Assembly: GCF_018389705.1 (NCBI RefSeq)
Contig: NZ_CP065581.1
Span: forward strand, 390,001-422,000
DNA length: 32,000 nt
Source of the DNA: Mycoplasma mycoides subsp. capri
GTDB taxonomy: Bacteria > Bacillota_I > Bacilli_A > Mycoplasmatales > Mycoplasmataceae
Direction of reading: 5' to 3'
Part shown: one piece after another, positions 1 through 13,351 of the stretch
How positions within the stretch are numbered: position 1 is the first letter of the stretch
Layout of the letters: the number at the start of each line of letters is the position of its first letter
The notes under the pieces: model-generated
The model's database searches: none
What the model saw: only the letters and a program-made list of their open reading frames with translations
What the model was told of the DNA's origin: nothing
Program-made: the position numbers and the translations under genes

Positions 1-2126
1 CATCATCAAATGGAATAACTGATGCTGAATTAGCTCCAATTAATAATGCAATTAATGATGCAATAGTTTCAAATAGAGATAATAAATTAAAACCAAGTGA
101 AGAAAAAATCATTAAAGAAACTGAAAAGAAAATTGAAGAAAAAATAATAATACCACCTGCTAAAAAAGAAGAAAAAGTTGAAGCAGCAAAACCAATACCA
201 AAACCAGTAGTAAGAAAGCCTGAAACAAAAATAACTTCACCAAAAATAACCAGAAGAAAACAAACTATTACAATTGCTGGAATTGAAGTTGAAGCCGAAA
301 TTGAAGGCCCACCTGGATTTGTAACTCATCAAAGAGATAAAGACAGAAAAATATCAAATCCTACAAGACCTTATCAAAATCATTCAGTTAATAAAATTCT
401 TAGTGTAAAAGTAACAGAAGAATTGAAAAAACAAGTTGCAAAAGATGCTTTATCTGGTGGTAATGGTTATGATGAAGGTGCAGGATTATTTAACAATAGT
501 ATTTTTAATGTATTTAAAGAAGAATTTAATTCTGGTAAGGAATTAAATGATATTTTAAGTACTCTTGAATCAGTAGCACGTCAAAACTCTGGTGCTTTTC
601 AAAATACTTTAGAACGTTATAAAAAATTATTAGATTCACCAAATGTTATAAATTTCTTAAAACCTGAAGCACAAAAAGAATATCCAAAACTAAAATCTAA
701 ATTTCAAACTAAAAATCAAGAATACATTTGATTAATTGCTAATTTAGATCAATCTAAATTCACAAAAATAGCATCAACTTCAGAAAAATATTTAGAAAAA
801 GGACTAACAATTTCTCCAAGAAGTGCATTTATCAACGAAGCTGGTGAAATTGATTCTAATGGTTGAGGACCACCAGATGAATATAATACTGTAACTTCAA
901 GATTAAGAAGAGATAATTCTGAATATAGAGTCTTTGATTATGATGAATATTACAATAGATCATCAGATAGAATAGCAAATGGAACTTATCCAGGTTGAGT
1001 TAAAGAAGATGTTAGTGAAGCATATAGTAAAAAATATAATTTTAAAGCAAGTGATGGTATTAGATTTAGTAAATTAGAAAGAATAAATCCAAATCCAGCA
1101 AAAGGTAAACTTAACTCAGGATTAGTACTAGATTTAGATGTTTCAAATGATGAAGCTTATAGAAGATCTAAGGAATTAATAGAACAATTACAAAAAGATG
1201 GTGAGCAAATCACTTCTTATAGAATAAAAAATATGGGTGAGAAAAACTCTGATCAAGCGTTTAAAGATATACTAGCTGCACTTCCAAAAGACATTCAACA
1301 ATTAGAATTGTTCTTCTCAGATAAAGCAACAAATACAGCTAGTTTAATTGCTTTAGAAAATAAAAATATTAAAGAATTATCATTATACACTAGTGGAAAT
1401 TCATTAAAAAAAGCTTGATCATATAATCCATTAGCTTTAAGAAATACAACTTGAATCAATACAATTGATTATAATGTAAGTGCTGAATATTCTAGTTATG
1501 ACAAAATTACAACTAGAATTACTTTTAATACTTTAGCATTTGATCAAGAAGACTTTAAAAATGGCAGTTATGAAAGAATTAATGATGGATTAAGAATGGT
1601 ATATTATGCAAGAAATAATGAACCATTCTTCCAAGGTGGACACGGACCTGGATTAGAACCTGATAAAAAATTAGGACAAAATAGTTATCCAACAGGTTTA
1701 GACTTTTCAAGAGTTACAGGTATTAAATCATTAAAAGGACTAAGATTTGATGATGATTTAGATACTTCAAATGAACCAAGAAAAATTACTGAATTAACCT
1801 TATATAATAATGAATCTTACTTTGAAATTTCTTCTGATGAATTAAATGTAGCTAACTTAGAACATTTATCAACTGGAAAAGGAAATCCAGAAAAACCAAA
1901 AATTCATTTTAGTAATGGAAATAATACAACAAGCATAAAAATAACTGGAAAAACAAAATTAAACGATGAAGGAAAAAGAAATTTAGACAAATATCTAGAT
2001 TATAATGAAACACTTAAAAATTCAGGAAAGCAAATTCAAGTGCCAAATGATGCTACTGAATTAAGAGACCAGTTAAAAAACTGAGGATATAATGTTGTTA
2101 CTGCAACTGATCGAACATTTACATAG
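1..2126 (+). CDS. Mycoplasma immunoglobulin-binding protein (MIB, protein-M-like surface protein); 5' end truncated by window edge
   Basis: One open frame (codons phased on nt 3) runs from the window edge to TAG 2124-2126. It joins track ORFs 423-731, 1233-1418 and 1596-2084 across six in-frame TGA codons (729, 864, 996, 1416, 1452, 2082), with no TAA/TAG. About 708 aa are visible. A Pro/Lys-rich linker (IIPPAKKEEKVEAAKPIPKPVVRKPE) is followed by a large globular part with LRR-like stretches (..NKNIKELSLYTSGNSLKKAW..). It lies 24 nt upstream of a DUF31 protease lipoprotein gene, which is the canonical MIB-MIP pair order. The family call rests on recollection of MIB/protein M features and on context, not on a database search. 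Confidence 0.7.
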
Positions 2127-2150
2127 TCAACAAAAAGGAATATACAACCT

Positions 2151-4732
2151 ATGAAAAGAATGAATAAATTATTGATGTATATATCATCATCAACACTTTT
2201 ACTCCCGATTACTTTATTAGTTGCTTGTACTACTTCTAAAGTAGTCTCTAAACCTATTGATGACAATGAATTTAATAAACTTATTAATTCTATAAAAACA
2301 GAAGATGATCTTTTAAAATATGCTGATATTAAATTTAAGGATCAAAGAGGTTCTGAAATAAGTAAGGGTAATATATTGCCATCACAATTAAAAAAAGAAG
2401 ACGTAAGTATAATCTTCAAGGGTAAATATAGTGGGCAAATTTTTACAGAAGTCTTAAATGTAAATGCTATTAACCAAGATTCTTCTTTAGGAAATAAAGT
2501 TAATATTTTTGTTCAGTTTACTAATAAGAAAACTGGAACAAAAATACCTACAAGTTTTATTATTAGTGGTCTAAATGAAAACGGTAACTTTGATTTTTCA
2601 GGAACTAGAATTGTAAATGACTTGGATTATTTTGGTGGTCTTAGCGGTTTTAATGATTATAGTAGTAAAACTCAAGAGCAACGATTTGATTATGATAATT
2701 CAAGATATATAACAGGATTAAAAAATCATTTATCAGGCGGAACAGGAACTGTTGACTTAAAAAAACTTAGAGGTTTAGATACAAAAGAAGAACAAATTAC
2801 AACGTTTGAAAATTAGCAAAAGAAGTTAAGTTCGATAGTTATTATAATGCTGCTTTAAAAGGGTTTACGCTACCAGTTTATGATAATTCAGGTAAATTTA
2901 CTGGTCTAAGTGTAAATGATGGACCAGAAATAGGAAAAATTGCTTCTCATGTAGATTCACTTGGGAGAACTGAAAAAGCTAAGACTAATGGTTTAGCTAG
3001 AACTATTCCAAATGATACTTATAGAACGGCTGCAATTCAAACATATCAAGTAAATTTCACAATTTATAAAGACTATGCTAAAGAAATTGAAGAGGCAGAA
3101 GATAGTATTCAATTATTTAGCAAATGAGATGAAAAACAAGTTAAAAGTTATATTTCTGCACAGCTAAATCAATTAAGATCAAACTTTGAAGATGAGGTAT
3201 CTCAAATAGAAAAAGAACTTTCCCAACCTTTAGAAGGTAGAACAACTATAGTAGAAAATCTTAAGAAGAGAAAATCTGAAATAACTGCTGAATATGAAAA
3301 AAATATAAAGGAAATATCATCGCTAAATAAGGATAGTCTTGTAGAATGACAAAAAAAAGAAATTGAAAAATATAAAAAGAAAAAAGAAGAGAAAATTTTT
3401 CAAACTTCTGAATCAGGAACAATGTGAATAATGGATTATATTGATATTAATAATCCAACTAAATTTTATTTTGGTACAAATTCACACGTTGCTAAAGGTA
3501 TAAAAGATGATATGGTTTCATTTTCTTTAACTAGATTAAATTCAGATATAAAAGTAGGCCAAACATTTGGATTAAATAGTGCTGATAAGAATTTTACAAA
3601 ATTTACTTTTGCACCTGCTAAAAAAGAAAATAAACTTAATGAGGCAGTAACAGCTATTTTTCATGCTACTGACTTTATAAAAAAAGAAAGTAGTCCACTT
3701 TCCTTACTTAAAGATGATCAAAAAACTAAGTATAGTGAAGCAGGCTTATTTGCAGATTTTGCAGTTGTTGAAATAGATTTTGAAAAACTTTTAGATACAA
3801 ATAATTTCTCACGTACAGTTTGAAGTGATTCTAGTGATATTTCAAGTAAATATCAAGATAATAAAAATGAATTAATAAAGACAATAACTAACGATTATGC
3901 AATGAGTGGTAAAAAAATTAGTTTTGCATCAGAATCTTTATTAGATGATAAAAATTACAAAAAATTTGATAGAAAACTTGATTTTAATCCTGAAAATTCA
4001 GATGAACTAAAAGCATATAGAGATTTAGATAGTCTATATATTGTAGGTTATCCAACTTCAAATGAAGATTATTATTTAGATCAATACGAAGATGAAAAAC
4101 AACTAAAAAATAAAAAATATGATTTTTCTTTATGAATTAATAATGAATATAAATATTATAAAAAATTAGTTAATGGGGAAGGAACTTCAAGCTCATTCAA
4201 AGATTATGAATTAGAAAAAGGAAACTTTTTCTCTTATCAAATCGGATATAGATCATTTATTGATAAACCTGGACTAACTGATGCATTTTTAGCAGCTAAT
4301 AAAGTTGGCAAAAAATTATATTTTTTAGATGAGCAAAACAAAGGTAAAGCTAAGAAATACTTTAATTATGGTTTAGAAATATTACCAAGATTTTATGCAC
4401 CAGCTGGTGGGGCTAGTGGATCAAGTGTTAGAACAAAAGACAATAAATTATTAGCTGTATACCATGCAGCTAATGGATCAGCTAAAACTGGTTTAGCAGC
4501 TGTATTTAGATCTAATGGTTATGACTATAAAAATCTATTTGGTTCATATAAATTGGGGCAATACGACTTAATTTATGGTGGTGGAAAAGATCAAGAAAAA
4601 GGTAAATCCTATAGAGAAGCCTTATTAAAGAAATATAATAATAGTAGTATGAAAAGTGCATTATTCCCTAGTGGTTTCGATGAAAAACATATTCCTAGTG
4701 AATTTAAATTTGATCACAACAAACAAAAATAA
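2151..4732 (+). pseudogene. Mycoplasma immunoglobulin protease (MIP; DUF31 / S1-like serine protease lipoprotein), reading frame interrupted near nt 2771-2813
   Basis: ATG 2151 encodes MKRMNKLLMYISSSTLLLPITLLVAC (signal peptide plus lipobox LVAC). That frame stops at a genuine TAG 2814-2816 after 221 aa. A second frame is open from 2771 (after TAG 2768-2770) to TAA 4730-4732. It carries the protease signatures SGTMWIMDY..FYFGTNSHVA (His codon 3485-3487), FADFAVVEIDF, and YAPAGGASGSSV (Ser codon 4415-4417). It contains in-frame TGA=Trp at 2807, 3125, 3347, 3425, 3821 and 4133. The span is 2582 nt (3n+2), so adding one nt would give an 860-aa protein. Confidence 0.8.
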
Positions 4733-13311: not shown

Positions 13312-13322
13312 TTTTAGATAAT

Positions 13323-13351
13323 AAAAGCAAGACTTTAAGTCTTGCTTTTTT
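13323..13351. terminator. Bidirectional rho-independent terminator between the convergent ATPase operon and lipoprotein gene A
   Basis: A perfect 11-bp stem pairs AAAAGCAAGAC (13323-13333) with GTCTTGCTTTT (13339-13349), with loop TTTAA. The A-run and T-run flanks give a U-tract on either strand. It lies 12 nt after the beta-like stop and 16 nt after the lipoprotein A stop. Confidence 0.8.

Follow-up and report, generated by a model that had tools for sequence, protein, structure and literature searches.

The window analysed here comprises 32,000 nucleotides (nt) of Mycoplasma mycoides subsp. capri contig NZ_CP065581.1, with a G+C content of about 24%. Its first 13,351 nt are very probably the distal portion of this subspecies' locus for MIB-MIP and the Type 3 F1-like X0 ATPase, in which the final pair of MIB and MIP genes and the seven ATPase-cluster genes form one unit that would start at a promoter upstream of the window and end at a hairpin at 13323-13351. 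In the orthologous system of strain GM12, MIB captures immunoglobulin and MIP cuts the heavy chain between the variable VH and the constant CH1 domains (PMC7935358; PMC12994834). As an ATP-dependent machine of nine proteins with which minimal bacteria rid their surface of antibodies, this system bears on mycoplasma vaccines and on vaccine chassis.

Genes were called under genetic code 4, in which TGA encodes Trp, by our own code-4 open reading frame (ORF) finder; a table-11 ORF listing breaks these genes apart because they contain TGA. Under code 4 the region resolves into nine genes, all on the plus strand, near-exactly at the coordinates of the original prediction, an earlier reading of this DNA made from its sequence alone. 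Each gene start is preceded by a GGAG-type Shine-Dalgarno motif. Spacers of 24 and 30 nt separate MIB from MIP and MIP from the gene of a 12-transmembrane protein, respectively, the latter gene overlaps its successor by 26 nt (6201-6226), one-base overlaps of the form TAATG occur at 7606-7610 and 11930-11934, and the remaining gaps measure 1, 1 and 4 nt (Table 1). Both the code-4 ORFs and the inspection of the junctions bear out the nine plus-strand genes with tight or overlapping junctions that had been described, and that observation is essentially right, bar a frameshift in MIP that had gone unnoticed. The nine genes had also been regarded as a self-contained module, a view that does not hold, since additional MIB-MIP pairs precede them on the contig.

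Table 1. Features of the region 1-13351 of the window (aa, amino acids).
Feature	Position	Strand	Remarks
MIB	1..2126, frame from nt 3	+	codons 44-750 in window; orthologue of M. mycoides subsp. capri GM12 MIB83
MIP, DUF31 lipoprotein, Ig-specific serine endopeptidase	2151..4732	+	orthologue of GM12 MIP82; frame broken
Frameshift site in MIP	2806..2818	+	C absent between 2809 and 2810 relative to relatives
X0 membrane protein, MSC_0624 family, 487 aa (g3)	4763..6226	+	NF045937; 12 hydrophobic segments
Small cytoplasmic DUF2714 / MSC_0623-family protein, 164 aa (g4)	6201..6695	+	PF10896; 26-nt overlap with g3
Gamma-like subunit, 303 aa (g5)	6697..7608	+	NF045933; weak PF00231 match
Epsilon-like subunit, 147 aa (g6)	7608..8051	+	NF045935
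MSC_0620-family surface-exposed subunit, 775 aa (g7)	8053..10380	+	NF045829; hydropathy
Alpha-like subunit, 515 aa (g8)	10385..11932	+	NF045936; motifs
Beta-like catalytic subunit, 459 aa (g9)	11932..13311	+	NF045934; motifs
Intrinsic-terminator hairpin	13323..13351	.	AAAAGCAAGACT-TTA-AGTCTTGCTTTT, then more T

Eight of the nine proteins score above curated NCBIfam cutoffs (MIB, MIP once its frame is restored, and six proteins of the ATPase cluster), and the ninth exceeds the Pfam cutoff for DUF2714. MIB, the Mycoplasma immunoglobulin-binding protein, is a homologue within the Ig-blocking protein family related to Protein M. It matches TIGR04526 with 735.5 bits (cutoff 150) and the domain model TIGR04524 with 131.5 (cutoff 40), and its residues 44-750 match the PDB chains 7adk_A and 7adj_A with E = 0. 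The gene is cut by the edge of the window, its start lying about 127 nt or more before position 1; in a longer stretch of the same contig (L007, 7724-9976) it is complete and encodes 750 aa.

MIP had been treated as one intact gene, and its frame is broken at 2809/2810. Its span of 2582 nt is not divisible by three, and a 1-nt deletion splits it into a first part in frame 1 (2151-2816, with a TAG stop at 2814-2816) and a second part in frame 3 (2771-4732). Where the relatives read TTTGACAAATTAGC in an alignment of five related loci, the window reads TTTGA-AAATTAGC. With the missing C restored, MIP becomes a protein of 860 aa that exactly matches WP_017698385.1 ('Ig-specific serine endopeptidase MIP'), scores 703 bits against NF045842 (cutoff 305), carries PF01732 at residues 288-773 and aligns over residues 1-860 to PDB 7adk_B, a chain solved by cryo-electron microscopy. 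The break precedes the DUF31 domain in a gene that directly follows MIB.

The window matches JFAE01000009.1 (GCA_000590435.1) at 100% identity, and that record is labelled as the type strain PG3 of M. mycoides subsp. capri. The short 221-aa MIP product was found on that public contig only, where it is annotated as 'hypothetical lipoprotein' (EXU60571.1). KB446533.1 differs from JFAE01000009.1 solely by the missing C in 20,666 nt and encodes an intact MIP, as do all relatives, with proteins of 858-861 aa. Because this otherwise identical assembly has the base, the break most likely reflects an error of one base in the assembly, or else a mutation specific to the stock, rather than a feature of the system. 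Programmed frameshifting and phase variation were considered and rejected: what is lost is a single C, with no long homopolymer or slippery heptamer at the site, and the retention of the C in the otherwise identical assembly also disfavours them. Falsely or genuinely, a one-base discrepancy in the PG3 draft truncates the MIP82 orthologue, of which annotators should be aware.

The seven genes that follow belong, in order and family, to the Type 3 F1-like X0 ATPase cluster as it has been defined, an assignment made by profile scores. The 12-transmembrane protein matches NF045937 with 370 bits (cutoff 70), and the small protein encoded after it matches PF10896 with 171 bits (cutoff 23.9), its homologues being named 'MSC_0623 family F1-like ATPase-associated protein' in their source records. 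The gamma-like subunit reaches 384.5 bits against NF045933 (cutoff 95), the epsilon-like subunit reaches 137 bits against NF045935 (cutoff 42), and the 775-aa protein reaches 486.6 bits against NF045829 (cutoff 210). The membrane character that had been attributed to two of these proteins agrees with hydropathy, a crude scan of which gives 12 hydrophobic segments in the first and, in the 775-aa protein, an N-terminal signal or anchor segment and, beyond an ectodomain, two transmembrane segments at the C terminus. The latter protein also contains a low-complexity Gly/Ser-rich linker at about residues 47-96 (window about 8191-8340; 68% G/S), and it is after this region that a 2026 study placed its ALFA tag (PMC12994834). 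Among strains, the protein ranges from 764 to 775 aa in length.

The alpha-like subunit scores 891 bits against NF045936 (cutoff 520) and likewise exceeds the cutoff of NF005523 (PRK07165.1), a model that NCBI calls 'ATP F0F1 synthase subunit alpha' (848 against 414), and it remains below the canonical atpA cutoffs (TIGR00962, 326 against 484; NF009884, 358 against 554) and below that of the gliding model NF045863 (394 against 600). Similarly, the beta-like subunit scores 808 bits against NF045934 (cutoff 570) and stays below the cutoffs for atpD (440 against 463) and for the gliding model NF045858 (350 against 850). The sequence motifs of catalysis are intact, with Walker A and B, the catalytic Glu and the Arg finger all present: the alpha-like subunit carries GDRQTGKT at residues 158-165 and the Arg-finger motif SVSRTGG at 346-352, and the beta-like subunit carries the Walker A motif GGAGVGKT at 146-153 (Lys152), the GER motif GSGERSREG at 176-184 and the Walker B motif LLFIDNIYR at 237-245. 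The Walker A motif is encoded at 12367-12390, slightly upstream of the position 12372-12395 given for it earlier. Many genomes of the M. mycoides cluster encode an identical beta-like protein. Its best sequence match in the PDB is 6q45_D, an F1 beta chain (E = 6e-106). The structure of a Type 3 ATPase has yet to be solved; F1 beta chains come nearest in the PDB, and the beta chain of the G1-ATPase, 9io5_A, ranks next.

These two subunits share with the canonical F1F0 ATP synthase (Type 1) the Walker motifs, the catalytic glutamate of GER and the arginine finger, but Pfam and NCBIfam profile searches found no genes for the F0 subunits a, b and c or for subunit delta in the cluster, and the membrane part consists of unrelated proteins. 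Across seven species, a small sample, no Asp, Glu or Arg of the 12-transmembrane protein is invariant, which lends weak support to a role not coupled to ions; residues that are invariant in this alignment are N78, K169, P172, N216, N373 and N428. The seven-gene architecture runs parallel to that of the Type 2 G1-ATPase, the gliding motor of Mycoplasma mobile (MMOB1610-1670; PDB 9io5), in which F1-derived subunits (alpha, beta, gamma and epsilon) are thought to pass force across the membrane to surface proteins. Unlike Type 2, whose model cutoffs the alpha-like protein and the beta-like one fail to reach (394 against 600 and 350 against 850), the window encodes a beta-like protein of 459 aa that lacks the N-terminal extension and whose alignment with 9io5_A, a chain of 784 aa, covers only residues 300-753 of that chain, and the output of its system is antibody processing, whereas that of Type 2 is motility.

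Several lines of evidence support transcription of the region as a single unit, as had been proposed. On the contig, a MIP gene and then a MIB-MIP pair precede the MIB of the window, and both upstream MIP-to-MIB spacers carry a hairpin, ATCCTTTAGA...TCTAAAGGAT, followed by a T-run (L007 2427-2452 and 7482-7506). These near-identical hairpins follow each upstream MIP and none follows the last one; the 24-nt and 30-nt spacers within the window contain no structure. [quoted passage not shown] A scan with the promoter consensus was uninformative in this AT-rich DNA, returning 83 sites against 113 expected from shuffles. For the founding member of the Type 3 ATPases, MSC_0618-MSC_0624 of the sister subspecies M. 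mycoides subsp. mycoides, whose locus tags the NCBIfam models carry, reverse-transcription PCR (RT-PCR) showed co-transcription with at least three upstream genes, and the downstream junction gave no product (Béven 2012, PMC3369863). The upstream genes there code for lipoproteins and transmembrane proteins (PMC3369863), whose identity as MIP and MIB came to light only after 2012.

The 3' end of the unit is marked by the hairpin at 13323-13351, which folds with -16.3 kcal/mol (z = -4.8; none of 200 shuffles folds as well) between two convergent genes, the beta-like gene with its stop at 13311 and a minus-strand lipoprotein gene ending at 13367, in agreement with the bidirectional terminator that had been proposed there. 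A standard terminator scan returned zero sites in the window, missing this one because the A/T extension of its stem uses up the T tail. On the metric of a relaxed scan for a hairpin plus T-run, on which the three compact terminators of the locus range from -11.7 to -12.9 kcal/mol, it scores -12.1 kcal/mol, and no internal site is stronger than -7.5 kcal/mol, so that the reported absence of such a structure before 13323 stands.

[quoted passage not shown] The DUF2714 family comprises 85 representative clusters among 1.84 billion proteins, and a word-indexed protein search with the DUF2714 protein of the window gave six matches, all from the mycoides cluster. More distant loci were sampled by exact-protein lookup in Ureaplasma canigenitalium, M. 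iguanae, M. caviae, M. buteonis, M. equigenitalium/californica and M. zalophidermidis. The seven-gene order is kept in all six, and in each a MIB gene, a PF01732 protease gene or both lie right beside the cluster in the same orientation, upstream of it in three and downstream in the other three. A linkage that outlasts such changes of gene order argues for functional coupling, and the co-occurrence and adjacency that had been proposed as a check are also documented at larger scale, with co-occurrence in 126 of 126 strains and adjacency in 85% of species (Berlureau 2026, PMC12994834). M. mobile is reported to have a Type 3 cluster but no MIB/MIP.

Directly next to the Type 3 cluster, and in its orientation, M. 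buteonis (L013 1026-4130, 1034 aa) and M. zalophidermidis (L015 17071-19179, 702 aa) carry large genes without a Pfam match; the products might be MIB-like proteins that have diverged, or accessory surface proteins of another kind. In M. feriruminatoris and in M. capricolum, two distinct DUF2714 proteins each were seen, about 85% and 59% identical to that of the window; this may reflect alleles that differ from strain to strain, or an additional Type 3 cluster carried by some genomes. In the mycoides-cluster genome CP011264.1 (L006 4044-6135), a DDE transposase of an insertion sequence element lies directly upstream of a truncated epsilon-like gene of 101 aa, and the MIB, MIP, 12-transmembrane, DUF2714 and gamma-like genes are missing from that place; the ATPase cluster may have been disrupted naturally there, or rearranged.

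The closest described counterpart is the MIB-MIP/ATPase system of GM12 (PMC12994834), from the same subspecies, which has the same nine genes in the same order, the same protein sizes and topologies, the Walker A Lys152 and the Gly/Ser linker of the surface subunit. The composition of the window's unit is also that of the 'Rational Operon' of one MIB, one MIP and one ATPase, which is fully functional (PMC12994834), and the window differs by strain-level divergence and by the one base missing from MIP. Relative to five other mycoides-cluster strains, GM12 not being among the loci compared, DNA identity is about 88-96%. Coming from the same subspecies as this model strain, the window adds nothing new to the system.

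In vitro, recombinant MIB and MIP, once purified, need no ATPase to bind antibody and cut it, and are then locked in a stable complex (PMC12994834; PMC7935358), and a resetting role for the ATPase was put forward by Nottelet 2021 (PMC7935358). According to this mechanism, a cytoplasmic alpha3-beta3-gamma-epsilon head would hydrolyse ATP, the resulting conformational change would be transmitted through the 12-transmembrane protein and the 775-aa surface subunit, and the very stable MIB-antibody-MIP complex would thereby be opened or reset. The original prediction had likewise proposed that the ATPase is coupled to antibody processing, and had presented this as an undescribed system-level function. 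Its reasoning is biologically sound, but the system and its ATP dependence are already known, having been published between 2012 and 2026. Indeed, the mutational and biochemical checks it had suggested exist in the literature: deletion of the cluster and the beta-like substitution K152A both abolish antibody cleavage, so that in cells the activities of MIB and of MIP both fail, the same mutants lose protection from agglutination, and all ATPase subunits co-purify with MIB and MIP after cross-linking (Berlureau 2026, PMC12994834). These results support the functional coupling, while the mechanical step by which the head would act on the surface proteins is only inferred.

Several points weigh against this reading of the locus. 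As given in the window, MIP is predicted to make no protease, its 221-aa product stopping before DUF31, and on sequence alone additional promoters may be present within the unit. Regarding the mechanism, cleaved antibody went undetected in the ATPase mutants even on cells, which a simple release or reset model does not predict, the authors of the 2026 study describe the mechanism as unknown and their own data as not fully fitting release, and the published AlphaFold3 models of complexes with the X0 proteins are of low confidence (PMC12994834).

The first of the alternatives, that the ATPase acts before release, in the assembly, positioning or activation of surface MIB and MIP rather than in a reset after cleavage, we regard as possible but the less likely course. 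The complete loss of cleavage in the deletion and K152A mutants, in whose cell pellets no cleaved heavy chain was seen, would be expected from such a role, and a disorganisation of the system is offered as an alternative by the same authors (PMC12994834). Recombinant MIB and MIP, however, work in vitro without any ATPase and only then stay locked (PMC12994834; PMC7935358), and the amount of cell-bound cleaved antibody that the authors expected, about 1 ng, may have been below detection (PMC12994834).

Somewhat less probable is that the MIP beside the cluster is a real pseudogene in the PG3 stock and that the ATPase serves only the upstream MIB-MIP paralogues in trans. The deposited sequence does lack the base and its 221-aa product is annotated, intact MIP genes lie upstream on the same contig, and the ATPase does not have to be encoded in cis to MIB-MIP (PMC11213901); against this, the second assembly, identical over 20,666 nt bar one base, encodes an intact MIP, no further damage has accumulated 3' of the break, and the gene is intact in all relatives. 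That the cluster has no tie to MIB-MIP beyond its position and encodes an ion-pumping ATPase serving the homeostasis of pH or membrane potential, a role proposed for M. hyopneumoniae, in which the cluster is up-regulated in vivo (PMC7379848), is very improbable in view of the missing a, b, c and delta homologues, the lack of invariant Asp, Glu or Arg in the 12-transmembrane protein in the small seven-species sample, the loss of antibody cleavage in the K152A mutant (PMC12994834) and the MIB/MIP adjacency conserved despite varying gene order.

[quoted passage not shown] Compatible with such an actuator are the lack of conserved F0-type charged residues in the 12-transmembrane protein and the complete loss of cleavage in ATPase-dead mutants; the window brings no evidence unique to it.

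Downstream of the unit, three paralogous genes for lipoproteins of about 830-845 aa lie in tandem on the minus strand (13367-15922, 16154-18664 and 18839-21418). Their products are 50-57% identical to each other and have a common signal peptide, MKKLIAILSS...IIAC; the Pfam family Mollicu_LP is found in related loci, and the copy number of these tandem genes ranges from one to three among mycoides-cluster strains. Further downstream, an inverted repeat resembling CIRCE (controlling inverted repeat of chaperone expression) occupies 23641-23667, with the sequence TTAGCACTC-N9-AATTGCTAA and two mismatches, none being expected in shuffles. It stands 58 nt upstream of a ClpB-like gene of 713 aa (23725-25866), which, judging by synteny with a related locus (L001), is followed by the genes for HrcA, GrpE and DnaK.

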